DNA from: Octopus sinensis
Taxonomy: Eukaryota
Reading direction: 5' to 3'
Assembly (NCBI RefSeq): GCF_006345805.1
Contig: NC_043013.1
Span: 54,560,001-54,624,000 of the forward strand
DNA: 64,000 nt
The notes beneath the pieces are model-generated. The model was not told the origin of the DNA. It made no database searches and saw nothing but the letters and a program-made list of their open reading frames with translations. This document shows positions 18,438 to 54,237 of this stretch, in pieces (positions within the stretch are counted from its first letter, which is position 1; every line of letters begins with the position of its first letter). The translations under genes and the position numbers were made by a program.

Positions 18438-18905
18438 ATATAATAAGTATAGGAAAGAATGGAGCTGAGCGAAGATTTAACAAAATTCCTTTATTTTATT
18501 TGGAATTTGACAGGGCGGTGTCTCTGCTCATTATTTATCATTATCGCTATGGGCTCCTCATGAGCAGTCATCTAAAAACTTGCTGTGCATTTTGTTGGCG
18601 AAAGAAGTTCCTGGATTTTCCTGAAGAGAAAGCTGCATAATGGACTCCTTATTCATTCGGAATTAGGAATTTTGCAGACTTCGAAACATATGTCGAAAAT
18701 AAAATAAAGGAATTTTGTTAAATCTTCGCTCAGCTCCATTCTTTCCTATACTTATTATATTAAATTAAACTTCAAATTTCCGGACTAAGGCACGGAGTAT
18801 ATGCCCTATGGTCGTAACTTCAACCGTGTTCTTTCTGTTGTGATTTTGCTACCCAGGTATCGGTTATCTTTCGTATTATCCGTAATAAGATAATTCATTT
18901 ATCTA
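18438..18905 (+). mobile_element. (TA)n-embedded hammerhead-bearing element with a 64-bp perfect inverted repeat
   Basis: Arms 18438-18501 and 18697-18760; hammerhead at 18615-18700; (TA)n on both sides. Confidence 0.8.
18615..18700 (+). ncRNA. Type I hammerhead ribozyme, canonical core, GUC cleavage after 18694
   Basis: AUUUUC-CUGAAGA-GA..AG-CUGCA...UGCAG-A-CU-UC-GAAACAUAUGUC^GAAAAU; 6-bp stem I, extended stem II, palindromic minimal stem III. Confidence 0.85.
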
Positions 18906-18965
<60 letters not shown>

Positions 18966-19782
18966 AGTGTGTATGTGTTGGCACATAAAATGCATAATTT
19001 GTGTGTGACTGATGCCAGTGCCGCCTGACTGGTACCATTTGAGTGTGGCCAATGCCAATGCCACTTGACTGGCACCTGTGCCAGTGATATGTAAAAAGCA
19101 TCATTTGAGCCTCCATTGAGTGTCCCTTTCTCCTGAAAACCCTTTCCCACACCAACCACTGATGTTGCCACTCTTTATTTTTGTCCCTTTCAGTATCCCC
19201 ACTTACATGCCTCTCACCCCAGTCTCTGTCACTGCATTTTTTTCTTCCCTACACTTCCCATCATCTCCATATCTACTGCCTGATAACTGCTGCCCTGACT
19301 AACTACTACCACTTCTCTTACCTTCCCCCACCAAACTGAGATTAACCATTGTCTACATCACCCATGTTCACCATTCACTGCATTCATCTTTATCCTCATC
19401 TCTTTTCTCTGTCTCACACCTTTCACATGCATTCAACTGTCCTTGACCTTCAGTCCCTATTCTCTCTTTATGCACTTTCTTTTTTGCACTTTGGCACCTC
19501 ATCTCTACCACCCTTTTTCCCCTCCCTTGCTGGGGTGACTCTCTATTCCCTCTGCGCAAGACACTTGTTCCTACCACTTTAGCCTCTCACTGTCTGACCC
19601 AAAGCCACCTCTCTCCATTTTGATGCATGATACATGTTCTTGTGTTGGTACCTGTCCTAGACAAAATGGCATTACTTTTTCACTCACCCTTGTATCCATA
19701 TATATATGTGTATCCAAATATTCTTTCATTCATTTCATGTATATTTCTCCATGTTTGAATGGCAGATTAATAAATATATATA

Positions 19783-19994
19783 TTCTTTTACCTTTTTACT
19801 TATTTCAGTCATTTGACTGTGGCCATGTGGAAGCACCACCATATAGTCGAACAAATCGACCCCACAACTTATTTTTTGTAAGCCTTGTACTTATTGTATC
19901 GGTCTCTTGCCAAACTGCTAGATTACAGGAACATAAACACACCAACATCGGTCGTCAAGCGATGGTGGGAGGGGGGACAAACACAGACACACAA

Positions 19995-20037
<43 letters not shown>

Positions 20038-20110
20038 TATATGTGATGGGCTTCTTTCGGTTTCTGTCTACCAAATCCACTCACAAGGCTTTGGTCAGCC
20101 CTAGGCTATA
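19783..20110 (-). mobile_element. SINE, family 1, head missing
   Basis: Matches the body and tail of family 1. Confidence 0.85.
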
Positions 20111-20159
20111 TCATTTTGTTTAACTTAACATAGATTTACTTTAAGAATGCAAATCATTG

Positions 20160-20552
20160 TATAGTCCTGAGAAAGCATCTCATACAGACGTATAATACTA
20201 AAAAGGAAACATGTCCAGCACCAGTGGTGGAACTGCAAGATCAAATAATTTCAATGCTTTTTGCACTTCACCAACAATATTTATCTCCTATCACAATATA
20301 CTTAACCAAATTTCGTCAATGCTAATCAGTCACTGGTGCTGCAAATAGCTGGTTAGTCACTATTTTTCTATATATCAGTATGGCTGAAATTTGGTTAGCA
20401 TATGGTGATATGCTGCTGATAAAACATAAATATGCTGAAATCACAAGATCTGACAGTTCCACCACTGATGCTCGACATATTTTGTTTTCTGCTGATATTC
20501 TGAGCATTTTAGCACTATACATCTATGCTAGATGCGTTTTTAGGATGACTAC
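20160..20552. mobile_element. Old foldback/MITE-like element with degenerate 80-100 bp arms
   Basis: aaacatgtccagcaccagtggtggaactg pairs with cagttccaccactgatgctcgacatattt; outer segments also pair. Confidence 0.6.
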
Positions 20553-22120
20553 CACAGTTTTACAGTGTTTTTAAACCATATCCATATTAAGATATAAACA
20601 CTACTATTCATTACTAATACTACATTCGTTGATAATAACTAATATAAAATCATTGTCATTGAATGCCCATGCCTTTGTCATTTAATGTGTATATACAATT
20701 AACTAATTATATCATTAGTTTCCTAAGATTCCTATAAAGCCATTTTTGGATTCTCAGTTCAAAATTCTTAAAAGATTCTTAAGTGGAAATTATTAAGGTT
20801 ATTTTAATAAGCTGGAAGATGAAGTGTGTTAATATCTGTTTATTAAAATGCCATAATCTTTCAAGAATCAAGAAATTAGTTTCCAAAAATGGCTAAGAAA
20901 TATCAATTGTTTTTGTTTTTTTTAATTTTAAGTAATGTTACCTTCTAGATTATTTTCTGCTCTTTCTACTCCCAGAATAAAGTCAGCACCTAAACTTAAT
21001 CCAAGTAGTTCCACAGTAGTCTTCTAATTGATAATATCTTTCCTCTGGTGAAATGGAACATATCATTAGAAACAGATGTGTTTCAAACGACTTCAGGAAA
21101 ATTCAAAGACAGCAATTTGTAGGCAGAATTTAGCAAGGAACAATTCACTGATTAATAAATTCCCCTATCAGCAATTGACTAATTTACATAATCACTGTTG
21201 GCAAATTATTAATTAATATTAGGATTTCAATGATGAGTAAAAAATAAAACATAAATATTTATTACTTTAACAAAATTATTTTAAAAGCACAAACATGTTG
21301 ATAAAAATTTTGAAACAGTTTCTAAAATGAGATGTTATGAGTTTAACCTCTTTAATATGGGACAATAAATTCATTAAGTTCATTTTTATATTCTCGCAGC
21401 ACAGGATACATTCAGCACTTCAATGGATGTTTTACTGATTGGACAAAGAATGGCCAGTTGTGAGTTGCCATTGGTGTATTTTCTGCACAACATTTTGACA
21501 ACAAATATATTTTCCGTGAGCAATAAAGTTTATAAACTGCAGCAATATTTGTGAGATTTTCAATGCAATGTTATTTTTAAATATTTAATCTTAAAACTAA
21601 CTTTAAAATGCAATAAAGAAATTCCCTTTTGAATTATTTAGCTATTTCTGCCAGCATTCATGTAGATAAATCGTTATTGCTAAACATTAATTACCTAAAT
21701 TTGTACATTTCCAAACGTTAGCTATAATTATTAACACCTTGTGCTTTATGGTTTTATGGGTGGTTAGACAGTGAAGGCATGTTCCAAATAATGATCAATA
21801 ATAATATTTATCAAATTATCTATAACCAACATAATTAATTTATTCCCTCATAATTTCTTGCTTGAATCCCAAGAACTAAGATGGGGGAAATAAAATCAAT
21901 AACGTCAAACAAATAGTTCATTTTTGGGTCAAAGGTTACAAATATATATTTACATATTAAATGGAAAAATAGTAAATCTACAGAAGAAAAAAAACATTAT
22001 GTGACAACCTTTCTTTATGCTTTAATCCTTCAGTTTTCAATCGCTTCTATCAAACATAATTCTTATTTATTCTCAGTGTTATAATTAATATATATGTTAG
22101 TATGTACATATATGTATACA

Positions 22121-22170
<50 letters not shown>

Positions 22171-22960
22171 TATACACCCATACATACATACACACAGCAA
22201 GTAAAAATGCAATTATTTATTGTGCAGATACTCATAAATAGGATACACACACACATAGAGTATATATATTTTATACGGTCTATGCTTTATTTCTTTCTTA
22301 TGTTAAATTTTATTCCATTACATTCTTTAATCCTTTGGCACCTTTTGTGTTTTTTTCTCCTATTTTTCTCATTTTTGCCTTGCTCATCTTTGAGCAGAAA
22401 ATCCCAAACCTCATCCATTCTAGAAACTCGCTACCATAGCAAAAGCCTGTATATCTAACAGCCATTATGTAATTTTATTCTATAAAGTTGCCAAATGCTA
22501 ATTCTGAATAAAGTAGAAGCATACTCAGTGGCAATGTCACTGCAAGTGTATGTAGCACCATTTCTTGGGTGTCATGAAGCTCTAGAAGGGAACAGTCAGA
22601 AGGTAATTACAGCTTATCAGCCTCTGTCTTCATTTATTATTTCTCAAAGCAGCCAGCACACACAGAAAACGTTTTCTAACTCTATGGAATAGCAGATTCT
22701 TCATAACCATTTTTTACCTTCAAGCAAAGAAATTTTTCTTAAAACCTGAACTTAAGTTTTCAGATTCCTTCAGATTATTATCATTTATTTCTAGTTTTCA
22801 ATTTAAATGCAGCCAAATTGAAAACCACCCCTGCCCCCACCCACGACATTTGGTCATATTCCTGCTGCTTAAGGCAGGTGAAAATATCTCCATATTATTA
22901 TCGTATTTATCATCATAGTAAGATTTCTTCTTTTTTTTTTCTCTCTTTCTCTCTCAACAG

Positions 22961-23033
22961 ATTGGATGAGTCAGTCGAACTATGTTTTGTCACCAGAGAA
23001 GTTATTTTTGTATCAGATTGATCTGTTTCTGTG
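22961..23033 (+). other. Candidate small exon
   Basis: Strong polypyrimidine tract plus caacag acceptor, weak gtgaat donor; one open frame (WMSQSNYVLSPEKLFLYQIDLFL). Confidence 0.25.
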
Positions 23034-23125
23034 GTGAATCTTATGACATGGCATCATGTAATAGAATTGGCAATGTTATCTTTCACAAATAAGAATTTTT
23101 TATGGAGACAATGCACAGAGTTGCT

Positions 23126-23543
23126 GGCATGGTCATATGGTTAAGGTGTTTGTTTCCCAGTCATGTGGTTTCAGGTTCAGTCCCACTGCAGAGCACCTTG
23201 GGCAAGTGTCTCCTATTGAGCCCAGGACTAACCAAAACTTTCTGAGTAGATTTGGTTGACAGAAGATGAAAGAAGTCAGTTGTGTGTGTGTGTGTGTTTG
23301 TTGCTCCTTGTCTTGACATAGCATGATAATTGTAAATGAGAGTCACCAGCATACAAGCAGTGTGGTTCATTTCCAATCTTCCATGAAAACATGTCCAGTG
23401 ATGGAGAAATAGCACCTTGCTTGGAAACAAGTGAGGGTTGGCAACAGGACAGGTATCCAGCCACAGAAAATCTCTGCCTTTCACAATAAATACCCTCTGA
23501 CCCATTCAAGCATGGAAAAATGGACGTTAAAATAATGAGGATG
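23126..23543 (+). mobile_element. SINE with a family 1 head, different body and RTE-like tail
   Basis: ggttcagtccc B-box and accttgggcaagtgtc, then gggttggcaacagga ... gcatggaaaaatggacgttaaa. Confidence 0.75.
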
Positions 23544-23687
23544 AATGTCTTCTGTTCACATATGACTGAAAAAGGAAACAGCAGATCTAAGTTTTATATG
23601 GAAATGGCCAATAGCATCACAGAGACTAGTGACTCTTGTTTTGTAGAATTATTTTGTTTTAACAAGGTCTATTAATACAAGTTGTGA

Positions 23688-24005
23688 AGGCACGGACCCT
23701 TTTGTGGTTAGAGTATTTTTCTCAAGATCATAAAGTTTTGAGTTCAATTCTCAGTGAGACATTGGGTCCTTGAGCAAGATACTTTACTCCACGTTGCTCC
23801 AGTCCACTCAGCTGGCAAAAATGAATTGTACTTGTAACTCACAAGGGCCAGCCTAGTCTCATTCTATGTCACACTGAACTTCTGCGAAAACTATGTTAAG
23901 GGTATGTGTGTCTGTGGAGTACTCAACCAGCTGCACGTTAATTTCATGAGTAAGATGTTCTGTTGATTGAATCAATTGGAACACACCATCGCAACTAAAC
24001 AGAAT
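23688..24005 (+). mobile_element. tRNA-derived SINE, family 3
   Basis: gagttcaattc B-box, ccttgagcaag, gttgctccagtccactcagctg; related to 25040-25327 and 55735-55950. Confidence 0.7.
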
Positions 24006-24437
24006 CCCTGTTTTTAATAATACAAGTCAAGTTTGACAAACCCCAGTCAAAACTCCTCACTGGTGTGCGACCGACATCACTTAATCATGAACGAGATTTC
24101 TATTTCCTCGTTAAGCTTAATTAATAACAATTTAAGCTCAACATTGATGCAGGAAAAAGAAAATACACACACACACACTCGTTTAACTCTGAATACAAAA
24201 CAGTGACTATGACTTCAATGTAATCAAACAACAGCTGACGACAGGAATTATGTATCACATAACGAAGCAAACAATAAGCGGTGTTGTTGTTGTTGTTGTT
24301 GCATACCCAATTAAACTACAAATTATAGATTAGCAAGTCATGAAAAAAGACGAGGAAAACAAATTGCTTTCATTAACAGTTTGGAATGTCAGTCCTCACT
24401 TCTAACAAAGAAGCCACAGATAATTTTTCATTGGTAG

Positions 24438-24478
24438 TACCCAGTAAACTGTGGAATGAATGCAATGTTTACTGGGTA
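24438..24478. repeat. 41-bp unit bounded by a 12-bp perfect inverted repeat
   Basis: TACCCAGTAAAC-17 nt-GTTTACTGGGTA. Confidence 0.7.
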
Positions 24479-25039
24479 TAAAACAGCACCCAACAACAAC
24501 ATCAACAATAACAATATGCTAGCAACTGATTTAGTATAGTGGATCTTGTCAGAGAACAACAATTGTTGTTTGAAATAGGAATTAAGTGAGAATAAAGAGA
24601 AATGATGAAATATTTACAACTCAATATTTTGTGTTTTTAATATGTATACAGCTAAATCATATGAAGATATATCTAAACACACATAAATACACACGTGCAC
24701 ACACACACACACCTACACAAATATATATACAGATCTTGGATTTAGTTGTGTGTAAGTTTTACAGATAAACAATATCCTGGTAGTTGAGTATAGAAGCATT
24801 TGGTCCTGAAAGTTTAGATGCTTGGTATAAGAACACACACACATTTGGAGACACAGTCTGCAGAAGCAGCAGTTGTCAACACAGAGTCAACAGCTTTTAT
24901 GACATTGAATATTATTTTTCTATTTAATGCATTTACACTAATATGGCTCTACACGCATGCATATGTACATTCAAACATACATACACACGTACTATATATA
25001 TATATATATATATGTGCTTCAGTACGAAGTATCAGTCGA

Positions 25040-25327
25040 GTAATAAGAAATTGGGTTGACAAAGGAACGAAGAATTATGCCATGAACACTTCATTAGCTT
25101 GTAGCTGTTTCTGCTACAAGGTGCTGTGCACTGGTAGTAGCCAGCTTGAGTATCACCCTGTAACTTTGATGAAGCTTATACCACATGTCAGGGGTCAAAG
25201 TGACCACAGAGCAATGTGAGTGAGATGAAGTGATTTGCTGAAGAAAACGATGCACTGCCTGATCCTGGAATCGAATCCACGATCTTGCAATCATATGTGC
25301 AACACCCTAACTACTAGATCATGTGCC
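25040..25327 (-). mobile_element. SINE with a family 3-like head
   Basis: Reverse complement: ggcacatgatctagtagttagggtgttg ... ggattcgattccagg. Confidence 0.6.
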
Positions 25328-25596
25328 CTCACACACACATATATACACATGCTCCCCCTCCAACACACACAGATACACACAAACACACTAACAAAACACA
25401 CAGAGAAACGTTCAAATATTTGTACATAAATCTCAAACATATGTCTGTTAATAATCTGTTATCTCCCATCCAAGTGATGAGTGTTCATATTCTGTTACAA
25501 GTAGTTGAGATTTTGTGATGACATAAACTGCAATGATCTGTGTACATGTGTGTCCCTTTATCTCGTATATATGTGTGTGTTTGTGTGTATGTATAT

Positions 25597-25667
<71 letters not shown>

Positions 25668-25669
25668 TA

Positions 25670-26054
25670 TTCTTTTATTCTTTTACTTCAGTCATTAAAC
25701 TGTGACAATGCTGGAGCACTGCCTTTTGTCAAGCAAACTGACCCAGGACTTATTCTTTGTAAGCCTAGTACTTTTTCTATCAGACGCTTTTGCCAAACCC
25801 CTAAGTTACAGGGACATAAACACACCTGCACTGATTGTCAAGCGATGTTAGGGTGACAAACACAGACACACAAACACACGCACATATATATATACAACGG
25901 GCTTCTTTCAGTTTCCATCTACCAAATCCACTCACAAGGCTTTGGTTGGCCCAAGATTATAGTAAAGACACTTGCCCAAGGTGCCATGTAGTGGGACTGA
26001 ACTCGGAACCATGTGGTTGGTAAGCAAGCTACTTACCACACAGCCACTCCTGCA

Positions 26055-26056
<2 letters not shown>
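25670..26056 (-). mobile_element. SINE, family 1, full length
   Basis: Colinear with other copies. Confidence 0.9.
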
Positions 26057-26101
<45 letters not shown>

Positions 26102-26102
<1 letters not shown>

Positions 26103-26489
26103 ATAATTATAACAATAAGGGTTTTTGCAACAAGTTGCTTGACCACATACCGAAATTTTAGAAATAGCAGCCAAAGGACTACTATTTCCTTTTTCTACAA
26201 AAATATGTCTCCACAGACAACAATATTTGTAACTCACATATGGCAAAAAAAGAAGAAATATTGTTGTCTGTGGAGACATATTTTTGTAGAAAAAGGAAAT
26301 AGTAGTCCTTTGGCTGCTATTTCTAAAATTTCGATATGTGGTCAAGCAACTTGTTGCAAAAACCCTTATTGTTATAATTATAATTATATAAGTTTTTACC
26401 GAATATGGTCCTTTTCCATACCGAAATACTACTAGGTGAAATTTGTTGATTTTATTAAATTGATTATATTTCAACCTATATCTGTAATG

Positions 26490-26491
<2 letters not shown>
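26102..26491. mobile_element. Family A element forming a 127-bp hairpin plus a one-sided extension
   Basis: Arms 26102-26228 and 26256-26382 with 1 mismatch and a 27-nt loop; the extension matches the reverse complement of 6036-6117 and 54273-54370; (TA)n flanks. Confidence 0.85.
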
Positions 26492-26525
<34 letters not shown>

Positions 26526-26800
26526 AAACTCAGTGGTTACTACTAAATTCAGGCCACGACAGACAGAGAGGCTGTTCTTGAAGCTGAAAATCTGAACTTA
26601 TGGAGATAATATTTACATATTGCCCAAAGAAACACAGCTGGATCACATAATGCAGGGAAACGGTTGCATAACCAAGTACTTGCATGCCTGGAGAACTACA
26701 TTGTGTGGAAACAATTGTAGTGATTAAAAAATAAATCTCCAATGATACTGTTTCTTGTTGACTCCAAATTTTTTCAATTATATATATGTGTGTGTGTGTA

Positions 26801-26879
<79 letters not shown>

Positions 26880-27587
26880 TCAGAGCATTTTTCACATGTT
26901 TGCAGTGTGATGAATAAAAGATAGAACAGTTGTATGAACTGAATGAATAGATAATTAGAACCCTGCAACGATGGTGAGTAATGGCTGATTAGACAAAACA
27001 AGTGAATGTGCTAGGGTTTCCTTTCTGTGTATTGGACAGACTTACATTCATAAATATATATATATCACCGGTGGCACGTGATATCGAAAGAGATTCCGGT
27101 GCCAGTGAGATGCGTACATGTCAATAGAAATCTGCAATTTCTGAAATCACAGATGATGTTTTAGATACATGTAAATATGGTTTGGATATTGCTATTTCCA
27201 GACCAAATATCCTGCCAGATCACAGAAAAGCTTTATTTCATTATTCTAGACTGAATGCCGATAAGTCTAAATGTATATTTTTAATGAAAATATAAACGGA
27301 AACAAAATAAAGCCATCAAAACTGCTTGCATGAAAGGAAAACATAATAATGACAAAATCAAAAAGTCCCTCACTCCTCTCTGCTAAAAGAAGGTTCGCAG
27401 TTCCATTTCTGGTAAATCAACTTGGCAGAGAATCAACGTAAACAATAATCTCTTGTACATTAGCTTTGTTATTTTGTCAGCTGTTGTGCAACCTATTCAA
27501 CAGAATAAACACATTGACAATACACACACACACACACATGTATATGTGTATAGATACATCTATACACATATATGTAAATACATTGAT

Positions 27588-27622
<35 letters not shown>

Positions 27623-27645
27623 ATATATATATATATATAATATAT

Positions 27646-27700
<55 letters not shown>

Positions 27701-27903
27701 ATAGATATTACACACACACACATGCACTTATACTTACATATGTAATGCATACATAATTTTTAATCAGCCAAAGTTACTAAAGTGACTCAAATGCAGCACC
27801 TTTGTAAGCTCCATGCTTACATTTACATTTACTGGTTTAAAAAATATGTATATGTATAGAGTTCTGTTTGGTCAAATATATGTGCACACATGCATATACA
27901 TAC

Positions 27904-27945
<42 letters not shown>

Positions 27946-28216
27946 GCACATGCACACAAACTCGGATATACTTACATATCTATATATGTATTTCTATGTG
28001 TATATATTATAAATATACATGCTTATTTATATGTATAGACATATCTATATTTGCATATATTATATAAATATACACTCATATTCATATCTATCTATCTATC
28101 TGTGTGTGGGTAGTAATAGTTGTAAATACACACACACACACACACTGGTTCATATCTGATAGACTCCTTGGATGAAATCAGTAAATCCTAAGAAACGTTT
28201 TAGATCTCACATCTAC

Positions 28217-28265
<49 letters not shown>

Positions 28266-28407
28266 ATGTAATAGCAAATATTTTGTGGATTTTGTTTTTT
28301 AAAGATGGCTATGAATTATAAATGCTGATCTAAATTCAATGAATTGATGTCTTCCACTCAACCGACTTTAAAACATTCTTTATTGTGTTTGCTATTATTT
28401 CTTTCAG

Positions 28408-28495
28408 GTTAACATGGTTCAAGTAAATGAAACAGTAGATTCAATAGGTAGGAATCTTCTTTGCAATTCACTTACTCTCATCTGGAACAACAAAG
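28408..28495 (+). CDS. Candidate 88-bp exon (VNMVQVNETVDSIGRNLLCNSLTLIWNNK)
   Basis: ttatttctttcag acceptor, AAG|gtaaga donor, one open frame containing an ATG. Confidence 0.35.
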
Positions 28496-28533
28496 GTAAG
28501 AAATAGCTATGTACATCATACATATACAAATAC

Positions 28534-28583
<50 letters not shown>

Positions 28584-30793: not shown

Positions 30794-30881
<88 letters not shown>

Positions 30882-33780: not shown

Positions 33781-35703
33781 ACTATACAATTCAGGCAGAA
33801 TTTATCAGTTTCTTCCGCAACACCAACTTTAAGAATTCTACAGGTGAATGTGATCTAGGTATTATTTTCAACAGTGATCAACACTGAATGGACCACATTT
33901 CCAAAATGTCAAAAAAGGGTGAAAGTATTTCAGCATCACTCAGTCAGACATTTGTCAGTCACTCACCAGTTATTATTTACATTTATGTTTGGTTATGGCA
34001 CATTCATATTCAGAGTTTGTTTCTCTGGTGTGGAACCCCCATCTTGTTCAAACTATCTATTGGAAACTAAAATCTGTCTAGAGACATGCAAGTAGATAAA
34101 TATCTTCCATCAGTCGCTTACCATATGTTGAATATCTTCCTTCTCTTGGCATTGACACACTGAAGTTTCCGTGACTGGCAGCTGACTTGATAGAAACCCA
34201 CAAGATCATTTACCATCTTTCCAACAGCAACATGGAATGGAATACTCAAATAAGTTGTTAGCAGTTAGAACAGTATTTTCTTCAAGAATTCCATGCTTCC
34301 CCAAACCCCCGACGCTACTTCCTCCTTATTCTTTTGCCGTTCACTTTTCTCTTTTCTTGTGTTTCATCCTGATTTTCTATATTTTTATATTTTTGGGTAT
34401 TGTTGGTGCCTTCCACTACTTCACTTACTGCAGCTTTCAGTCCCTATTTTTTTCATTCATCTTTTTCTGACAAATTGCAAGGCCCCTGAGCATTGTATAC
34501 CATAGGCTCATTATTATCACATTTTTCTTCACCAATTATGAAATTAATATATTTAGCAGGTAGAGGTTTCTCCAGCTGCACATGGAGAAATAGAGTGATA
34601 TATTATGTAGATGAGAGAGTGAGAGAGAGAGAGAGACATAGAGAGAGGGACAGAGAAAGAGAGAGATGCACTCTACTCTAATTATTAGTTACGAAAACTG
34701 AAACAAATTTTAATGATATCAAATAAATAAATTGCATTCTGGGAAACTTCAAAACAGGATTTTTCAAATATTTTTCTTTCTTTTTTTTTGTGTAATTTTT
34801 ATTTCTGGATTGCTAAATATTTCGTCGACACCAGTCAAGACAGCACGTGACAATTGTTTAATAAATGAAATATTTAGTTTAATAATAGTCAAAGTGCCTG
34901 GAGACAAAAGAATATCTACATGTTGCCACATGATAATTATAATAATGACGATAATAATAATCATAAAGGTATTTAAAGAGAAAAGTAATTAAAGTAATTA
35001 AATATAATATATTTAACGAGGAACAGAACAAAATAGTTTCACTCTGGTGAAAGATTTGTAATTGAGGATCATTTAATGTGTTAAAAGATTTTTTTTTGTG
35101 TGTTGATAATTATTTGATAGATAAACTCTGGCACTCATATATGAAAGAGTTAGCTCTGGTACTTGTATTTGATATAACCAACTCAGGTACTCATCTGCCT
35201 CTCTGGTCACCTACACTCAAGACGATCGTAATACACACAGTTGGATGGAGTCACCTAATATTGAAGCTCCATAACTGTTTTTCAACTCCGCTCCTTGCAT
35301 AAATACACATTCTGTCTACAAATATAGCTGGTCTCTATTCTATATGAGTTACTTTATATATACTTCTATATGAGGTACCAATGATGTTGTTTAGTTGCAA
35401 GCAGAGAAATAATTCACCTCAAAAGAAATAGTGGCTGCTGCATGAAGAAAATGGTGAATGTCTTTTAAGGAACTACATTATTGCAAGAGAAATAATTATC
35501 AAAAACACCCAGAAATTGACCTTGCATTATCTTGGATATATATATATATGCATACACACACATATATGACCTGTATGTGTACTTGTGTGTATATATATTG
35601 ATAAAAACGGTAAGATAACAAAAGAAAGAAAGAGACCTCGATATTATGTAAATAGAGGAATTTATCTGTAAAAGTAATATGTGACAATTATTCGGTAGCC
35701 AAG

Positions 35704-35762
35704 ATAAAACTCTGAGTTTCGGATGCTGAGGTGGAAATCCACGCCACCATCTCTTCAGTTAT
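35704..35762 (-). ncRNA. Mirror copy of the hammerhead motif
   Basis: AUAA-CUGAAGA-GAUG...CAUC-C-GAAACUC-A-GAGUU^UUAU on the minus strand. Confidence 0.6.
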
Positions 35763-35768
35763 CCAGTT

Positions 35769-35827
35769 ATAACTGAAGAGATGGTGGCATGGATTTCCAC
35801 CTCAGCATCTGAAACTTGGAGTTTTAT
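35769..35827 (+). ncRNA. Type I hammerhead motif with imperfect stem II base, GUU triplet
   Basis: AUAA-CUGAAGA-GAUG-GUGG..CCAC..CAUC-U-GAAACU-UGG-AGUU^UUAU. Confidence 0.6.
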
Positions 35828-35863
35828 CTTGGCTACCGAATAATTGTCACATATTACTTTTAC

Positions 35864-35894
<31 letters not shown>

Positions 35895-36745
35895 CTCTGG
35901 TACGTCCACTCTGTTGTTATTTGTTTGTTTGAAGTCCTGACTTTCCACAAATTTTATATTTTCAAGTTTTCTGGATGCAACTGTCTTATGAAGTTTCTTC
36001 AGCTTGTCCATTGAAAGTATGAAATAGGGAGTAGTAAAACGGTCGACAACTGATGAAGAGTTTTCTCCTTTTGCTATTTTGTCCTAACTCCTTTATCTCT
36101 TGTGTGTCTATGTATTTTTCACTTATTGGTGATGTCCTGTACACAATGTGTATTATTTATATATATATAGATACATATACATACATACACACATACACAT
36201 ACAGGTCATATATGTGTGTGTATGTATATGTGTGTGTGTGTATATATATATATATATACATACATACATATATATATACACACATACAGGTCATATATGT
36301 GTGTATGTGTATATATATATATAGATATATACATATATATACACACATACAGATCATATATGTGTGTGTGTGTGTATATATGTATATATATATATATAAT
36401 ATATATATATATACTCTGGTACGTCCACTCTGTTGTTATTTGTTTGTTTGAAGTCCTGACTTTCCACAAATTTTATATTTTCAAGTTTTCTGGATGCAAC
36501 TGTCTTATGAAGTTTCTTCAGCTTGTCCATTGAAAGTATGAAATAGGGAGTAGTAAAACGGTCGACAACTGATGAAGAGTTTTCTCCTTTTGCTATTTTG
36601 TCCTAACTCCTTTATCTCTTGTGTGTCTATGTATTTTTCACTTATTGGTGATGTCCTGTACACAATGTGTATTATTTATATATATATAGATACATATACA
36701 TACATACACACATACACATACAGGTCATATATGTGTGTATGTATA

Positions 36746-42980: not shown

Positions 42981-43026
<46 letters not shown>

Positions 43027-43350: not shown

Positions 43351-43635
43351 CACATACATCACTGAATTGGTATCAGTTGGGTACATTTGCTTGTAGCTGT
43401 ATTTGTATGAATTTTTGGTCTTTTATTAAATGGTGTACAGAAAAATGGAGGGAATTACAGAAGAATTCTATGTGAGTTAGTTGAATTAGTGAAAAAAAAA
43501 AAGACCCGTAAACATCTTCAAGAGTTAGTGAGCATTAAACACAGACACACAAATGTGTAAAGTGAAGTCACACGTGTTTATATTTTGTATGTATTTACAT
43601 ATGACATGAATGTATACAAGAGTTTGATGCAACAG

Positions 43636-43683
<48 letters not shown>

Positions 43684-45964
43684 TGTATATGTTGTTTTGC
43701 TGTGGTGGGGGGGTCAGTTTATTTGTCTGTTGTATAAACCATGAATTCTTTTTTTTTTCTTTTCTTTTTGAAGTTTTTTGTATATTTATGTTTGTATGTT
43801 CTGTATGCAAGTGTTATTTATATTTGAAGTTTTCTCTCTGATATATTCTTAAACAAATGTGTGTAGGTTTATTTTCCCTTCTTCTCTTGTGTGTGTCTAT
43901 TTTTATCCTTCCACTCGATTAAATAATATCAATGATTTAAAAGAAAAAAAAAAAGGAAATTTTTTATTCTTTTTTCCCCCCCACTTTTTTTTTTCAATAT
44001 CACAATTTGTTAGAAATGTTTTGATTCTGACCTAAGAATTTTCCTGTTTGACAGAAAATGTAAGTCCTCTGTAAAATAATTCTAAAATGAATTTCACTGG
44101 CAATTGAGCTAGAATTTACATCTGTGTGTTTATGCAAGGTTGAAAATAACAGAAAAGAAAAGGTAAAAAAAAAAAAAAACAGAAACAAAACTAAACAACA
44201 CTTGCTTGTAACAAAAAATTATTAAAAAATGTTTTCAAAATGGATCGAAGACCAATAAATCAATGTTAAAAATGAAGGAAATGAAATCCAGTAATGTCTG
44301 GTTATTTTTTTTTATAATCATGTATTTTGGATATTTATCTGTTGTCAAATGGTTTCTATTTTGTTTATTGAACATTTAACACACATGTTAATAAGAAAGA
44401 GTTGAGAATATTGAGTAGGTGCAGTTGAGAAATTCTGCTTCTCTTATTCTTTCTTCCTCTATCAGATTCCCATTTTCACTGTGGTGTTGCTCTATTTATT
44501 GCTATTGATGTTGGCATCATGTTCATCACTGCTGTTTGTTTCACTCTATGGATGGCACCGTTGCAATAAATGATACAGTTATCACAAGATTGAATTGTTT
44601 TTATGGCCTCATATTTACTTCAGTAATTCACTAGGTTCTCTGATTTACTAGGTTCAAATGTCAGCCACATTGATCTTTCTTCTTTTTACTTTTATTTTTA
44701 TTATAAATTGTTGATTAAATCACATTTAAACATTTCTCTGTAAAATACATCCGTCCCACCATCATCCTCATCTTTATTACCACCACCACCACCACCACCA
44801 CCATAGTTATTAACACCATCACCCCCTCTACAAGTAGTGGTGTTTTCTTAAATAAGTACAAAGACTGTATTTTTGAAGCGTAAAAATGAAATTTGTGCAA
44901 AGTTCACAATCCTTTTCAAGGGTTTATCAATAAAAGAAATGAAAGCTAGATTACGGGGCTTGTTCACTGGAACTCGTCTATATTTTCCAGATGTGACTAA
45001 CACAGAACCACAGTAACTCATTTTGTATAAATCCATTTTGTAGACTCAAATTGCACTGGGCTCAGCTTTAATCCATATTGGGTTTAACTTTAAACCGATT
45101 ATCTGGTTTAACATTAAATCCAAGAAGATTTTAACTTTACTTTTCATACATCCATACAGGATTCGGTCATTCTCACCTCTGGAATCATTCCTCTCAAATT
45201 CACTTTCATCTTAATTATACGGTATCAAGATTCAAATTTAATTTAATATTTTCACTCCCAATAAGTTATACGAATAGAATTTAGTTAATTGCAATGACTC
45301 AATGCAGATATACAGAAGTGTGTATGTGCACATGCATGCATGCATGCGTGTGTGTGTGTGAGAAAATCATAGTTATTCTTGCAGCTGTCCCCATGTGCTT
45401 CGTCCACTTTCTTTCCTTTAATATTCAGATCACTGGGCAGAAATTACACAGCAATTGTGAAGCTCTGTTTTAATTAGTTAGTTCATATTAGTTAATACCA
45501 GTTCTGAGTTAATTAAACACAAATGACTGAATAACTGCTGCACATCATGGTTTGATGGTAGCCCAATAGAAAGCTATTGTCAACTGATCTACAGGTGAGT
45601 CCAAACGCCTGCTGCTCCATGGTGTCCCAGGTGTGTAGCCATGTTGTTTATACCCATTCTACCCTAGACGTCAGAAGCTAAAACTGTTACAAATGACCAT
45701 CACCCATCAATGGAGCATAAAGTTATGCATGTTTGATGTTACAAGTGCTGTGGCTTTACAAGTGTCTCACATGCATATCTGTATGGAGTACACAATACAG
45801 ATGCAGAGTACGGTACTTTATTTTAAGTTGAGCGGCCGCATGCCTTGTAAACTCTAGAATAAGGAGCCACTGGAACAACTTCAATAATGTAGTGTCTCTC
45901 TCTCTCTCTCGCACTTGATACATATCTACATATCTATATATACACATATACATACATACATATC

Positions 45965-46190
45965 TTTTTTTATCTTATACTTGTTTCAGTCATTAGACTA
46001 TGGCCATACTGGGGCACCACCCTGAAGAATTTTAGAGAAACGAATCAACTCCCATACCTTTTCTTTTCTAAGCCTGGTACTTATTATATCGATCTCTTTG
46101 GCTGAACTACTAAGTTATGGGGATGTAAACTCATCAACACCAGTTGTCAAGCAGTGGCTGGGGAACAGTTGCAGACACAATGGTACACAC
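45965..46190 (-). mobile_element. SINE, family 1, 3' half
   Basis: ttgtttcagtcattagactatggcc ... gttgtcaagc. Confidence 0.8.
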
Positions 46191-46200
46191 ACACACATAT

Positions 46201-46379
46201 AGGTGTGGCTGTGTGATAAGAAGCTTGCTTCCCAACCACATGGTTCCCGGTTCAGTCCTACTGCATGGCACCTCGGGCAAGTGTCTTCTACTATAGCCTC
46301 AGGCTGACCAAAGCCTTGTTAGTGGATTTGGTAGTTGGAAACTGTCATATATAGCCTATTGCATATATATATATATATC

Positions 46380-46441
<62 letters not shown>

Positions 46442-46715
46442 GTATGTATATATATGTGTGTGTGTGTGTGTATATATCTCTGTGTGTGTATATATATCTG
46501 TGTGTGTGTGTCTGTGTTTGTTCCCCCGCTACCTTGCTCGACAACTGATGCTGGTGTGTTCATGCCCCCATAACTTAGTGGTTTGGCAAAAGAGACCAAT
46601 GGAATAAGTACCAGGCTTACAAAAAATAAGTCCTGGGTTGATTTCTTTGACTAGGATCTTTTAAGGTGGTGCTCCAGCATGGCCTCAGTTAGATAACTAA
46701 AAGAATAAAAGAATA
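46201..46715 (+). mobile_element. SINE, family 1, with an expanded internal microsatellite
   Basis: Head at 46201-46345, (TA)/(TG) tract, then body and tail to about 46715. Confidence 0.85.
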
Positions 46716-47998
46716 CACACACACACAGAGGGAAACTGCATGTGACCATTGTACATAGGGAAAATTTGTGAATATATTTCACGATTATATTGTCCAATGG
46801 TTTTTAAATGCAGATATACATATAAAATTTTAATGAGAATTAAAAATCCAACAAAAATATATCGGACAAACAGAAAGAAGAGGTCCATTTCTAATATGAC
46901 CGTGTAATGCACAGGACATGCTTCAATGGCAACAGAATTCCAATATTTAGATTTTTCCTTTTTCTACTTGGACAACGAGTTTCAATTCCCTCAACTATCT
47001 TGAAAAGACGTGACACTGCGTTTGACCGGGGAATAAATTAAATTTAAAAAATGTCAAAACAACAGCTTCGTTTCAATGAATTCAACACTTATAAACAATG
47101 AATTGAAAGTGGAAATAGCTGTTTCGAAAGTCCCTTAAAAAATTACAATCTTCAATGTAATAAATTCGTTTTTGATCTCTTTGCAAGAATGCTCATGTTA
47201 TTATTATTGTTATCATTGTTGTTGTTGTTGATGTTGATGAAATTAATAATAATAGTGATAATAATAATATGAGAAAGATGAATAAGTAATAATCATGTGA
47301 GGATTTGAAATAAATCAAATTTACCTTCTGGTTGATCTGTGCTTTAAATTATTTTCCTCACAAAAGCAAAAAGAAATGTTTCCTTTGTAAATTTATAACC
47401 ATTGATATCTTTTATCATCATCATCATCATCATCCTCATTGTTCTTATTGTTATCATCATCATCATTATCATTATTATTGCTGTTGATGTCAGTACCACA
47501 ATCTTTGTCATTATTGTCGTCGCCAACATCACCCCCAGTATTGTTATCACATCATCCTCATCATCACTGTCATCACTGTCATCATCACCTCCCTCACCTC
47601 ACACCACTCATTTGATTAATTCGACTTGTTTAGAAGTGATTCTCTTCTCTTTCTTCCCCGTATGCAAAAGGACTTCTCCATAGCAGCAGTGTTTAGACTG
47701 ATTGTCCATTGTGACCACCAACCATAGGCATCTTTACTAACCAGACAGTTATCGAGATAAATGCATCAATGTTTCAATACACAGTTGGCATTAAATCTGT
47801 TTTGTTTTCATAACATATAATTCTTTCAGAACAACACAAATTGAACAAATCCCATTTGTTTGGTTCTGAGTTAATTGTATAAAGATTAAACGTCTGGCGA
47901 GAAGAGACAGAAAGTTCTGGTTCAAATACTTGCTATAGAGAGCCTTGTCTCGGAAAAATTATCCACGAATGTAGACAGACATGTGTAAATGGATATAG

Positions 47999-48032
<34 letters not shown>

Positions 48033-48183
48033 GTATGTATGTATGTATATATATATATATATATGAGTATATATATGTGTGTGTGTCCATGTATATATAT
48101 AGGCTTGTGTGTATATATATATATATATATATATGAGTATATATATGTGTGTGTGCGTGTGTGTCCATGTATATATATATGCT

Positions 48184-48243
<60 letters not shown>

Positions 48244-48980
48244 TACGTATGTATATGTATTTATATGTATGTGTGTGTGTGTGTGTGTTTATGATATGGC
48301 AGTTTTAAAAGGGCAGAATGTAAAAATTTAAATAAATACCTCATAGAAAGGAAATAAGTGGAAATGATGGAAATAGTAAATAAGAGGAGAAAAGCAGAGG
48401 AAAATTAGAAAACTGATTCAATGAAAATAAAACCAAAAGCAAAAAGGATGGGGTCATGAAGAATTAGGAATGGTCTTGGATGGAAACTTGTTAATTTATT
48501 GTATTGTGTTTCTTCTTTGTATAGTTCTGCTTCTATTTTGTTATCTTACCAAATTGGATGTGATTGTGAATGTCTAGTTATTTACATATATTATGGCTGT
48601 AATGAGTTTTTATACGGATAGTGATGTTTCCTAAACAGTAACCACTTAATTTTGAAGTAAGAGAGATATATACACATATATCATTTAATGTCAGAGTGTA
48701 TAGACACGCACTGCTTATAGTTTCTTGCTCTGGTGACATGTGTCTAGGCAGGTTTTTATAACGTGGCTTGTGTCTCCAAGAAATCTTCAGTCTCTGAGTG
48801 CATGGTCTACTGTGTTCTATTTGAAAATCTATTTCGAGGAAATAGACAGAGACAGAATAAAAAAAAAAACTTGTGGATTTAGGGTCAAACATATATATAT
48901 AAGTGTGTGTGAGTGTGTATATGTACACAAACACACATACACTCATATATATAACATATATATATATATTATATGTACAC

Positions 48981-49062
<82 letters not shown>

Positions 49063-49196
49063 TTTGAGGGAATATTATGCCTAACTTACAGGGAAAAATT
49101 TAATTTAGAAATACTAATATTTCTATTATATGTAATTTTCTACATGGTGTAATTTAATTGTTCATTTTGAATTGATAAAAGGTGGATTTTTCTAAT

Positions 49197-49233
<37 letters not shown>

Positions 49234-50405
49234 CCCAATTGTTTTAACATGTGCTTTTTGTTGCTCATGTGGGTCGGATGAGATTGGTTGAGACAGATTG
49301 TTTCTATTGCTGGATACTCTTCCTGTCTTGAACCTTCACCTGTTTCCAGCTAGGTAATATATTCCCTCAACTCCGGACTTGTTTTCATGCAAAAGTAACT
49401 GTTTGTTTCAAAGTGAAACTTGTTTCGAACTAACACGAAACACCAAGGCAAGGACACACACTTACACAGGCACATTATATCTATATGCATGGACACAGCC
49501 AGCTTTTCTTCTTTTTTTTTTTCCTATTTCCATCATCCAAATTCACAGACAAGGCTTTTGTTACCCTGAGTCTGTAGTTGAAGACACATGCACAAAATGA
49601 CATGCAGGGTGGCTGAACGTAAAGCTATGTGTTTGTGAAGTAAATTTTGTAATTACACACACATATCTATCAATCTATGATGATGATAATGATATGGATA
49701 ATGATATGCATGTATATATATATATATATATATATATATTGCTGGGCATGTGTGCATACTCATGCATACATGCAGCTAGGTACATTGAAACAGAATGAGA
49801 CTTATGAACCTTGCTTAATGCGTAGCTGTGTAATTGAATTGTGTTTCAACTGATTGAAATGTAAATTGATATGAAATAGATCAGCAAATGATCCAATTCT
49901 CCGCTGTTGTGCATTCAAACCCAGTGGATTTTGATTTTGGATTTCATTTCTAAAAGATCAATAACATAAATTTGAATAGCAGAGTGGGTGCAATTCAATA
50001 ATCAATAGCCTTATCAGAAAAATAAAATAAAATAACAGAATGGTTTATCATTTTGTTTAAATCTCTGATGGAAACAGTGTTTTTCTGTGAGTTTGTATGA
50101 AATCTGAGGGAACTGTAAATATATTATTCCATTCGTTCCATGAAAGAAAATATATTTGAATATTTCAACAGCTATAATCTTGATGGGAAAAGAAGTCAGG
50201 GTGGGGACACTTGTTTTTTTTTATCCTTTTATTTTTCATTGTGATTATTCGAAATTAGAGCATTTTTAGAACATTCCTGATACCTAATCCTCTGGAATAT
50301 CTCTCAACAATATTGTTTGGTTGATCGCAACCACAATGGTTTAGACAAAAGTAACTAAATTGCTAAAAAATAAATAATATATATATAATAAATAATATAT
50401 ATATA

Positions 50406-50778
50406 GGCGCAGGAGTGGCTGTGTGGTAAGTAGCTTGCTAACCAACCACACGGTTGCGGGTTCAGTCCCACTGCGTGGCATCTTGGGCAAGTGTCTTCTG
50501 CTATAGCCCCGGGCCGACCAATGCCTTGTGAGTGGATTTGGTAGACGGAAACTGAAAGAAGCCTGTCGTATATATGTATATATATGTATATGTGTGTGTG
50601 TTTGTGTGTCTGTGTTTGTCCCCCTAGCATTGCTTGACAACCGATGCTGGTGTGTTTAGGTCCCCGTCACTTAGCGGTTCGGCAAAAAGAGACCGATAGA
50701 ATAAGTACTAAAAGGTGGTGCTCCAGCATGGCCGCAGTCAAATGACTGAAACAAGTAAAAGAGTAAAAGAGTAAGAGT
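50406..50778 (+). mobile_element. SINE, family 1, young copy with a short internal deletion
   Basis: ggcgcaggagtggctgtgtgg A-box, ggttcagtccc B-box, CpGs retained, (gtaaaaga)n tail. Confidence 0.92.
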
Positions 50779-51300
50779 ATACACACACACATATATATGT
50801 ATGTATATAAAATATAGTATAAAAAAAGATGAAAAAATAAAACATTTATTCCTCAATAAATCAATGAAAGAGGAATTTCAGAAATTCTACTCAACATATA
50901 AATCATTAGTGTTTGCTTCCAAACATTTACTTGGTTCTTTAGTAACATGACACAAGGAAAAATATATTGAAACCATAGAATTTCTATTAGTATAATTTAC
51001 AAGCATACACACACACACACACACATGCACACACACGCACATGTGCACACATAGACATTATTGTGTTTCAATGTTAAACCACAGAGAAGAGATATAGCCA
51101 GCATATAGAGTACAGATAATCCTGATTGGATTACATAATATCCAGAGGGATATTTACCACACCTAAAACTGTCAAACGCTAATCTATCTACTTTTATACA
51201 AAAAAAAAACATGTCAATCAAAGCTGTAACTCTTAGAAAAACTCAGGATGTTTCTGTTGGTTTTGTTTCAGGTTTTTTTTTCTTTCTTCCTTTTTTTTGT

Positions 51301-51312
51301 GTATGTGTGTGT

Positions 51313-51391
<79 letters not shown>

Positions 51392-51602
51392 TGCTATAAA
51401 GAAATGGTTGCAGCCTTGAAGATTTACGAGTTGAAAAATACACGTTCTGCATTCCACACCTCACTGTCTTGAAAGAAAGAAAGGAAAAAAGAAGGAAGGA
51501 AGGAAGGAAAGAAAAAAAGAAAGAAAGAGAGAGAGAGAAAGAAAGAGAGAAGGGAGAGAGAGCAGAAGAAAGGGAGTGAGAAAGAGAGCAGGAGAAGGGG
51601 AG

Positions 51603-51642
<40 letters not shown>

Positions 51643-51660
51643 GAGAGAGAGGGGGGAGCT
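51301..51660. repeat. (GA)n and purine-rich low-complexity tract
   Basis: Directly visible. Confidence 0.85.
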
Positions 51661-51985
51661 GGTGATTTGAGGAGTAACAAACAAACAATCTCTCAAAGGA
51701 AAATTTTGATGAGAAATGAAATGGCTGAAATATTTAGTATTAAAGTATTTAAAGTTGGTAAAGACATGGAAAAATAAATGAATGAATAAATTGACCAAAG
51801 AGGAATAAGAAACGGCAAAAACAGGGAGTGCAATTGCTTAAAATGCTGACCTGAAATTTGAGTGAATTCAATGTTGAAATTTAATGTTTTAGAAAAATAA
51901 AAATTAAGGAAAGGATCGGTTTCTGTGAAATTGTGAAGATGCATGTTGCATCTGTTGTGTGTATTGAACTGTAAAGTAGGGGCTA

Positions 51986-52192
51986 TTAATTTTTGGGGTC
52001 AGTCATGCTGTGTGTCTTATGTGTACTGAGCTGTAAAGTGGTGTGGTCTGTGATGTGGTGGTTCTCATTTGTGGTAGTAGCAGTCCATGATGTGGATGTT
52101 ATTATACATGGCATTTTGTCATCAGACACCTTTTCATATAAGTACTGGGCTGTGGCCATTGAAGTTTGCATCGCATCTGTTACTATCGACAC
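51986..52192 (-). CDS. Candidate exon (VSIVTDAMQTSMATAQYLYEK...)
   Basis: ttttatggttttattag acceptor directly before a phase-0 open frame; possible AAG|gtgtct donor at 52130, otherwise open to the stop at 51986. Confidence 0.3.
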   Translation of the reverse strand: MSIVTDAMQTSMATAQYLYEKVSDDKMPCIITSTSWTATTTNENHHITDHTTLQLSTHKTHSMTDPKN

Positions 52193-52246
52193 CTAATAAA
52201 ACCATAAAAACAGCACTTGCAGAAACAAAAACAAAAAAAAATTAAA

Positions 52247-52968
52247 TGAGTGGCTGTGCGGTAAGTAGCTTGCTTACCAACCACATGGTTCCAGGTTCAG
52301 TCCCACTTTGGGCAAGTGTCTTTTGCTATAACCTCAGGCCGACCAAAGCCTTGTGTGCAGATTTGGTAGACAGAAACTAAAAGAAGCCAGTCATATGTGT
52401 GTGTGTTTATGTGTCTGTCCCCCACCATTGCTTTGCAAATGATGCTGGTGTATTTACATCCCCATAATTTAGCGGTTCGGCAAAAGAGACTGATTGAATA
52501 AGTCCTGGGGTTGATTTATTCAACTAAAGGCAGTGTTTCAGCATGGCTGCAGTCAAATGACTGAAACAAATAAAATGAGTAAAAGATAAATAAATAAAGT
52601 ATGGCTATGTGATAAGAAGTTTACTTTCCAACCACACAGTTCTAGGTTCAAACCCACTACATGACACTTTTTGCTATTGCCTCAGACTAACCCAAATCTT
52701 GTGAATGGATTTGGTAGATGGAAACTGAAAGAAGCCTGTCATATATATGTGTGTGTGTGTGTGTGTCTGTGTCAGTACCCCATCACCATTTGACAACTGG
52801 TGTTTATGTTCCTGTCACTTAGTGGTTCAGCAAAAGCAACCGATAGAATATGTACCAGGCCTAAGAAGAGAAAAAGTCCTGGGGTCAATTCATTTGACTG
52901 AAATACTTCAAAGCTGTGCCCCAGCATGGCCACAGCCTAATGACTGAAACATGTAAAAGATAAAAAAG
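52247..52968 (+). mobile_element. Two tandem SINE family 1 copies
   Basis: Heads near 52247 and 52598; each ends in atgactgaaaca plus an A-rich tail. Confidence 0.85.
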
Positions 52969-53412
52969 AAAGGTGTAAGGTGAGTTAATGTAGGAAACAA
53001 ATTAAACCGAAATATGTTGAATCTCATAGACAAAAAACAAAAACAAAGCAGAAACGATGCTATAGATTACAATCCCACTTTTTCATTCTTCCATAATACT
53101 AATTAGTGAGATGACTGATCTTTTTCTATTTATTTAGTTGTCATGTATCAGTATTTAGCTCTCGTTATTGACATGGAAAAAAAAAGAAGTTTCAGGTAAA
53201 AAACAACGTGTATCTATTTCATTACATTTCCAGATAGTGTCTCTACATCAGGCATGCAGACACATATACATACATATATTATATAATATATATATATTTA
53301 TATATATATATATATATTATATTTTATATATATATATACCTGTGCCTGCATATATGTGTGTATATATATGTATATGTGTGTGTGTGGTGTGTGTGTGTGG
53401 TGTGTGTGTATA

Positions 53413-53465
<53 letters not shown>

Positions 53466-54042
53466 CGCACATATATGCATACATACATATCTTTGCTAAA
53501 TTAACTTTGTTTCTTTCCCTGACCTTATTATTTTAGTATAATGATATCTTCACTTTTATGACATTAAGTAAATTGGATTTTGCTGAAGGAAGGTAATGTC
53601 AATCAATGGAAGTGACAATTAACACATTAGTGCACGTTCATTAATCACATTTTGGATTAGTCAAATTATCTTAAGTTTAGAATATCTCATAAAAGGAGAA
53701 AGGAAAAAAAGTGTTCAAATAATGAAAGCTAAAGTAATTACTACAGAGAGAAATAGGTGTAAAACTGCTAAAATATGATAATTTTAATTTAGGTTAAATT
53801 CTTCAACAATTTAATTGTGACCCCCTAAAGACATAATTCTTGCTGAAGTGTTGCAAAATGAAGCAAAGCAAGCAGGAAGGTCAATGAGACACACGTCTGC
53901 TTTGCTCTTGTCTCTGAAACTACAAACAGTTTTGTTCAATACACTCACCGTATAGCTACTATTACATAAAATATCATCTACACTCTGGTTTCAATAAAAT
54001 AAGCATTGGTGTGTATGTGTCTATATTTATATACACACGTGT

Positions 54043-54088
<46 letters not shown>

Positions 54089-54091
<3 letters not shown>

Positions 54092-54235
54092 GAGTAAACT
54101 GTCTGATGAACGGCAACGAGAAACTCAGAGTAACAGATTTTGTTGAATTTTCTGCTGCTTAAAATAAAGCATTACTCTACCACTGGTATTTGAGTACTCT
54201 TTTTCCACCTTGTTTCACATTTATGTGTTTACTCC

Positions 54236-54237
<2 letters not shown>
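54089..54237 (+). mobile_element. 149-bp (TA)n-embedded hammerhead mini-element with 11-bp inverted ends
   Basis: ccggagtaaac ... gtttactccgg; pure (TA)n on both sides. Confidence 0.8.
54099..54136 (+). ncRNA. Minimal 38-nt type I hammerhead ribozyme, GUA cleavage after 54132
   Basis: CUGU-CUGAUGA-A-CG-GCAA-CG-A-GAAACUC-A-GAGUA^ACAG. Confidence 0.8.

Follow-up and report, generated by a model that had tools for sequence, protein, structure and literature searches.

We analyzed a 64,000-nt stretch of Octopus sinensis DNA (RefSeq assembly GCF_006345805.1, contig NC_043013.1, positions 54,560,001–54,624,000 of the forward strand; hereafter the window) that contains four inverted elements with hammerhead ribozyme motifs, named A (6030–6576), B (18438–18905), C (35600–35868), and D (54089–54237) in window coordinates. 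As judged from their sequences, these elements are likely stubs of Penelope-like elements (PLEs), and our concern here is where their inverted arms begin relative to the ribozyme. The window is AT-rich, microsatellite-rich, non-coding animal DNA with a GC content of 0.33, and all of the elements sit in (TA)n, where target-site duplications are unresolvable. Searches with tblastn and with a hidden Markov model built from 19–20 relatives found no trace of a PLE protein in the window, as expected for stubs that represent 3′ ends.

A relaxed scan for type I hammerheads recovered exactly five motifs in the window, one each in A, B, and D and one in each arm of C, compared with 6 matches in 30 block-wise dinucleotide shuffles (0.2 per shuffle). 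The motifs have the features of the minimal or dimeric type I hammerheads described for metazoan PLEs (PMC4209133), namely a CUGANGA and GAAA core, an NUH site, stems I and II, and a short palindromic stem III, with the stem II of D being weak (2 bp). Rfam gave no hammerhead match for A or B at E ≤ 10 when each was searched separately, and a search of the whole window, the one that covered C and D, had no hammerhead among the 150 matches listed of 309. The self-cleavage sites given here are those predicted from the motif. Positions from C3 refer to the CUGANGA core and are counted from its first base.

In element C, two hammerhead-bearing arms meet head to head at 35762/35769 across a 6-nt spacer. 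The long arm with its tail (35600–35764, minus strand) carries a hammerhead at 35764–35702 with a 6-bp stem I and a predicted cut after 35708, and its 5′ end lies ~6 nt above the core. The short arm (35769–35868, plus strand) carries a hammerhead at 35769–35827 with a 4-bp stem I and a predicted cut after 35823, and its 5′ end lies 4 nt above the core. The spacer (35763–35768) repeats the last bases of the arm, with CAGTTA present twice, and in this it resembles the templated fillers found in the sister families described below. The arms of C differ at four sites, each readable as CpG decay, and were therefore probably identical at insertion; the same four differences led us to reject an assembly fold-back artefact as the origin of C. 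Element D consists of a hammerhead-bearing arm (54099–54237, plus strand; motif 54099–54136, predicted cut after 54132 at GUA), whose 5′ end lies 4 nt above the core, and an 11-bp inverted arm (54089–54099, minus strand), which is a copy of the last 11 bases of the element (54227–54237) and whose 5′ end is thus at +95 after the cut. Base 54099 is common to the 11-bp arm and to the 4-bp stem I of D.

The hammerhead-bearing long arm of B (18502–18905, plus strand; motif 18615–18700, predicted cut after 18694 at GUC, which is GUA in relatives) belongs to a high-copy family in related species and begins 119 nt above the core. Its inverted arm (18438–18501, minus strand) is the exact reverse complement of 18697–18760, so that its 5′ end is the third base past the predicted cut and the first two bases of the 3′ cleavage product are missing. 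The hammerhead-bearing arm of A (6217–6576, plus strand; motif 6318–6380, plus strand, palindromic stem III, predicted cut after 6375 at GUU) begins 106 nt above the core. Its 99-bp inverted arm (6118–6216, minus strand) is identical to 6478–6576 and begins 103 nt past the predicted cut, and a tail (6030–6117, minus strand), an 88-nt 3′ extension of the long arm, is present on the left arm only and is homologous to the ends of three further elements, E, F, and G.

A fifth inverted pair, element E, is related to A but lacks a hammerhead: its short arm (26100–26255, minus strand) begins ~30 nt and its long arm with tail (26256–26491, plus strand) ~70 nt after the cut position of A, so that both 5′ ends lie downstream of the hammerhead position in A coordinates. 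The E hairpin yields spurious microRNA matches in Rfam. F (18237–18426, minus strand) is an A-related and G (54275–54431, minus strand) an A/E-related 3′ end, both with a tail and without a hammerhead; F abuts B and G abuts D, each across a short (TA)n, an adjacency that suggests clustered or nested insertion. The 5′ end of F and the left arm of B also start with similar sequence, pointing apart, possibly by chance.

A reading of the sequence alone had placed the inversion breakpoints of three of the four hammerhead-bearing elements at the ribozyme and had proposed that the self-cleaved RNA end or the folded ribozyme sets where reverse transcription stops or switches template. When we recomputed the arm limits, its coordinates proved right, and the C and D junctions do fall in stem I and that of B 3 nt past the cut. 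The count of three in four, however, mixes two landmarks, takes one of the two 5′ ends of each element, and omits the hammerhead-less E, F, and G. Moreover, it is circular to state that C folds back exactly at the 5′ edge of stem I, because truncation itself sets the edge in a truncated copy; stem I of the left arm is 6 bp long and reaches 35764, and hence the right arm, with 4 bp, was cut inside the stem. Counted over all arms, 4 of 12 5′ ends (three of them independent) fall at a landmark: two from C and one from D in the 5′ strand of stem I, and one from B past the cut. Under a null of geometric truncation conditioned on retention of the hammerhead, run at nine settings and with landmarks chosen after the fact, P(≥3 of 4) was 0.0001–0.01 and P(≥2 of 4) was 0.005–0.10. 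Chance combined with ascertainment would hold that only hammerhead-bearing copies are noticed and that stem I is delimited by the truncation, and it would draw on the omission of E, F, and G from the earlier count, the longer stem I in the other arm of C, and the freedom to use two landmarks and two ends per element. Yet the hammerhead-conditioned null gives 0.01 or less for three or more of four, and sister families show the same pile-up of ends. We regard this explanation as very improbable, and the coincidence in the window probably exceeds chance.

The sister families come from a hammerhead pattern of the C/D type, which, over animal DNA in metagenome assemblies, matched 118 loci with 9 of 64 parts scanned (~970 estimated). 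Two families, P1 and P2, account for 63 loci with 73 hammerhead-bearing arms; the other 55 loci, which comprise chance matches and other families (20 inspected), were left out before counting. Locus L070 was removed as the same insertion as L088, and L004 and L084, which have a tail but not a flank in common, were both kept. In one assembly the L070/L088 insertion stops at –1, whereas another assembly extends it by 89 nt, so that a contig end at the hammerhead does not amount to a truncation. The final junction set comprised 72 arms in 62 loci; of these arms, 30 were censored where a contig or the 125-nt reference ended. These data come from other animals and few assemblies, are biased against long copies, and are subject to chance AT matches that shift ends by 1–2 nt.

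P1 and P2 have the anatomy seen in the window: their arms are head to head, their 3′ ends are fixed at two positions, and their targets are AT-rich. In addition, 4 of 9 partnerless copies have target duplications of 13–15 nt. The fillers between their arms are mostly re-copied pieces of –9 to +14. Several loci (L022, L051, and L098) have nearly non-overlapping arms. Upstream of P2 at one locus (L072) lies a 68-residue end of an open reading frame (ORF), identical to the C-terminus of a 703-residue protein, P0003, in which RWK, DKT, CxCX5C, CxxC, and CxH motifs can be read; neither the P2 peptide nor P0003 has a Pfam match. The same protein motifs, canonical hammerheads, and (TA)n insertion characterize the Hydra clade of PLEs with a C-terminal endonuclease (EN+ PLEs) (PMC8557442, section 11). 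As read from these motifs, P0003 provides family P2 with the telomerase-like reverse transcriptase and GIY-YIG endonuclease typical of EN+ PLEs. For C and D, which lie in a window without an ORF, we infer membership of this clade from a likeness to P1 and P2 in stem III, in 3′-end spacing, and in a downstream hairpin motif matched by eye. C and D are co-linear with P1 and P2: the 3′ ends lie 45 and 109 nt after the cut in C, 105 nt in D, and 41 and 108 nt in P1. D is 78% identical to locus L028 over 49 nt in a comparison that is partly circular. A DNA profile of 12 families, restricted to the region downstream of the hammerhead, did not recover C and found D at a non-significant E of 4.5. A, E, F, and G, as well as B, show no similarity to the Hydra-clade sister families and may belong to other clades.

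The 5′ ends of the sister arms pile up beside the hammerhead. Among 42 observed ends, 39 were at –1 to –14 from C3, 33 at –7 to –14, and 12 at the mode of –11; the remaining three were at –39, –115, and –121. The hazard of ending within the pile-up was 28 times that in the –15 to –125 interval (p = 1e-16), and counting one arm per locus gave 29 versus 3 (p = 3e-13). Arms that did not face an inverted hammerhead arm behaved likewise, with 17 of 20 ends at –2 to –14. The clustering of junctions beside the hammerhead that was noticed in the octopus elements finds strong support in the sister families and weak support in the window, where it concerns C and D. The upper edge of the pile-up is the A of TCATT (–11 in P1, –12 in P2), 28–34 nt below a TATATA run. 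Across 12 representative families, 7 have a TATA-like motif at –47 to –37 and 7 an initiator-like A at –6 to –12, counts that have no null behind them. Two other sources of the edge were rejected: a splice acceptor, as P1 and P2 have no AG at –11/–12, and the near-palindrome ATTAAAT as sole cause, as the pile-up remains in arms without a facing arm. An extra G was also rejected as a cap signature, as the partner arm templates the Gs.

With moderate confidence, we read A–D as 5′-truncated head-to-head insertions of Penelope-like ends and the C and D junctions as marks of reverse-transcriptase (RT) run-off at the predicted start of uncleaved RNA. The endonuclease would nick both strands of AT-rich DNA, and each nick would prime RT at one of two internal sites, ~40 and ~108 nt past the cut site. 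When priming occurs in the promoter-proximal pseudo-long terminal repeat (pLTR), RT would reach the end of the RNA after 85–150 nt and run off its natural 5′ end, a predicted transcription start 6–12 nt above the core, and the cDNA ends would then be joined head to head by microhomology, snap-back, or short re-copied fillers. The long arms of A and B would reflect priming in the downstream pLTR followed by random stops, that is, ordinary truncation. The ribozyme would thus be a neighbor of the junction, and it is probably not the cause of the clustering. Ribozyme mutants insert normally in vitro, with unprocessed RNA as the main template (PMC11167929), and Naiads show the same inversions without canonical hammerheads (PMC8557442).

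The folded ribozyme, with or without bound protein, could instead set the 5′ end, either because RT stalls on it or because it protects the RNA from 5′–3′ decay and leaves trimmed RNAs whose ends lie at a constant distance above stem I. The ends of C and D do lie inside stem I, on its 5′ strand, at –4 to –6 and thus nearer the stem than the sister mode, and this keeps the explanation alive for them; stem I and the edge are separated by a similar distance in P1 and P2, and the fold of the 5′ ribozyme of R2 stabilizes its template (PMC11331408). Sister stem I is 4 bp, however, and 3 of 39 piled ends lie at its edge (–5 to –3) compared with 24 of 39 at –13 to –9. A structural stall should place ends on the 3′ strand of stem I, and none was seen there; RT that had copied this strand would meet no further fold able to halt it on the 5′ strand. 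In addition, the edge coincides with the initiator 30 nt below TATA. On these grounds the suggestion that the fold sets the junctions is not supported by the sister families, although their data do not separate the decay-shield version from a transcription start, and we consider a role of the fold unlikely overall.

Element B bears on whether, in some families, self-cleaved RNA serves as template and RT runs off at the cut. The inverted arm of B begins at the third base past the predicted cut, and the family keeps a cleavable GUC or GUA and, in relatives, a longer and better-paired stem II, so that it may cut better than the minimal motifs; 5′ junctions set by ribozyme cleavage are known from R2 (PMC3774820). 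This is a single case, however, and the window has 7 arms whose ends lie downstream of the core, which gives an end this close a 16–21% probability of arising by chance. The junction also lies inside an AAAAT repeat, a 5-nt unit that is polymorphic in relatives, where microhomology could move the junction further 3′. Nine sister partner arms, which were not selected by the pattern and end inside or past the core (+4, +12, +14, +22, +27, +65, +67, +71, and +103), include none at the start of the cleavage product (+32 to +36), a result that excludes only a strong peak (0.7^9 = 0.04 if 30% of ends lay there). In Anolis, likewise, reads ending at the cut site were not seen (PMC11167929). The proposal that the self-cleaved RNA end sets the junctions is thus not supported by the sister families, and the B junction is most likely due to chance. 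Copying of cleaved RNA could hold for family B alone alongside run-off for C and D, but as an account of some families we rate it as decidedly unlikely.

Relatives of B supply the family context. Public runs share up to 0.44 of B's words, all as contigs, and no RNA run was among those listed as sharing them; a family-B word had no match in metagenome or viral contigs. We aligned four public runs to 18502–18904 and obtained 2991 contigs, 421 of them partly on B, which show a high-copy family with GUC/GUA variation at the cut and stem-II-improving variants. The variant table (18600–18724) suggests that stem I in family B extends well past 6 bp and that stem II may pair over 10 bp. The 2991 contigs contained no inversion joints on B, a result without power because contigs collapse fold-backs and the window itself shows such joints; the same lack of power applies to the 24 loose-end groups shown (of 226), none of which is at 18695–18700. 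One subfamily has a CCAAT/TGACGTCA/TATA promoter ~100 nt above the core. At the equivalent of 18519–18529, relatives carry CCAAT, (T/C)GACGTCA or CACGTCA, and TATA in that order above the hammerhead, as does a sister family (L023 and L105).

A broader alternative joins both ribozyme accounts: the hammerhead would fix, in vivo, the template's 5′ end, with the cleaved product copied in family B and the fold protecting the RNA end in families of the C/D type. We find this doubtful, but, if it is true, the junctions would provide the first trace, in vivo, of the hammerhead functioning in PLEs.

Several points weigh against RT run-off at a transcription start. The start is predicted; the TATA and initiator motifs are short, lie in AT-rich DNA with no null behind them, and were read in the sister families rather than upstream of C and D. 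The statistics come from families of other animals that were picked by a pattern derived from C and D; censoring affects 30 of 72 arms, and long copies are too rare in assemblies of short reads. The C and D ends (–4, –6, and –4) are nearer stem I than the sister mode, with 6 of 39 sister ends at –1 to –6. The downstream-only profile, as noted above, links neither C nor D significantly to the other families. Penelope of D. virilis has a TATA-less internal promoter (PMC2377424). Finally, run-off leaves the cut-site end of B unaccounted for.

The architecture of the elements is known, and the pile-up refines a known system rather than defining a new one. In L1 twin priming, both target strands prime cDNA, giving an inversion; the inverted parts of L1 do not overlap, whereas the window arms mostly overlap as inverted duplications. 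A non-LTR retrozyme was rejected, since no element forms a direct head-to-tail tandem and the arms are head to head. EN+ PLEs insert in (TA)n, carry hammerheads in the pLTR, and have tails, inverted 5′-truncated partners, and palindromes at their junctions (PMC8557442, PMC3846280, PMC4209133), and the window elements share with them head-to-head truncation, a tail on one arm, junction palindromes, (TA)n targets, and the pLTR hammerhead (Craig et al., 2021, PMC8557442; Arkhipova et al., 2013, PMC3846280). An inverted 5′-truncated partner is present in A, B, C, D, and E, and a tail on the longer arm in A, B, C, and E but not in D; tails are 30–40 nt in EN+ PLEs but ~65–145 nt in the window. A pLTR of Adineta contains TATA and an initiator-like motif (PMC8557442, PMC3846280), a combination also present at the edge of the sister pile-up.

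The closest experimental parallel is the Poseidon element PAc of Anolis (Frangieh et al., 2024, PMC11167929), which has two internal RT start sites that give 3′ ends of two kinds, short ones and ones with a tail. The two target strands are each nicked and extended, and uncleaved RNA is used, as we propose for the window elements. PAc differs in that the system is in vitro and the ORF starts inside the hammerhead (PMC11167929). The ribozyme of R2, which resembles that of hepatitis delta virus, is a precedent for a ribozyme-defined 5′ junction and shares snap-back and extra-template junctions (PMC3774820; PMC11331408), but its cut makes the 5′ end, whereas PLE ends pile up upstream of the ribozyme, at least 40 nt before the cut site. 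The accessible portions of PMC8557442 and PMC3846280 contain neither a mapping of 5′ junctions against the hammerhead nor a pile-up at the predicted start, and those of PMC11167929 contain no analysis of where the 5′ junctions of genomic copies lie. No such pile-up was found in the literature searched, which covered main texts and few subscription papers.

The role of the hammerhead in PLEs is described as an open question (PMC8557442, PMC11167929), and junction mapping allows a test that needs nothing but genomes. According to the sister-family data, the inserted copies would derive from uncleaved RNA that starts just above the ribozyme, consistent with the in vitro work. RT run-off would also explain the many palindromic stubs of 85–150 nt, which would result from priming at the wrong pLTR, the promoter-proximal one, and would allow transcription starts to be read from dead copies.

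Other features of the scanned loci and of the window deserve mention. At L040, two hammerhead-like cores lie in direct tandem (176–209 and ~140 nt further 3′), a retrozyme-like arrangement. The window contains a dispersed family of more than 15 copies that resembles short interspersed nuclear elements (10314–10741, 15656–16084, 17776–18244, 25632–26092, 50368–50824, and others), and which may be akin to those of octopus. Two apparent near-identical tandem duplications are also present, at 30833–31727/31671–32563 (98.7%) and at 35895–36413/36414–36932.

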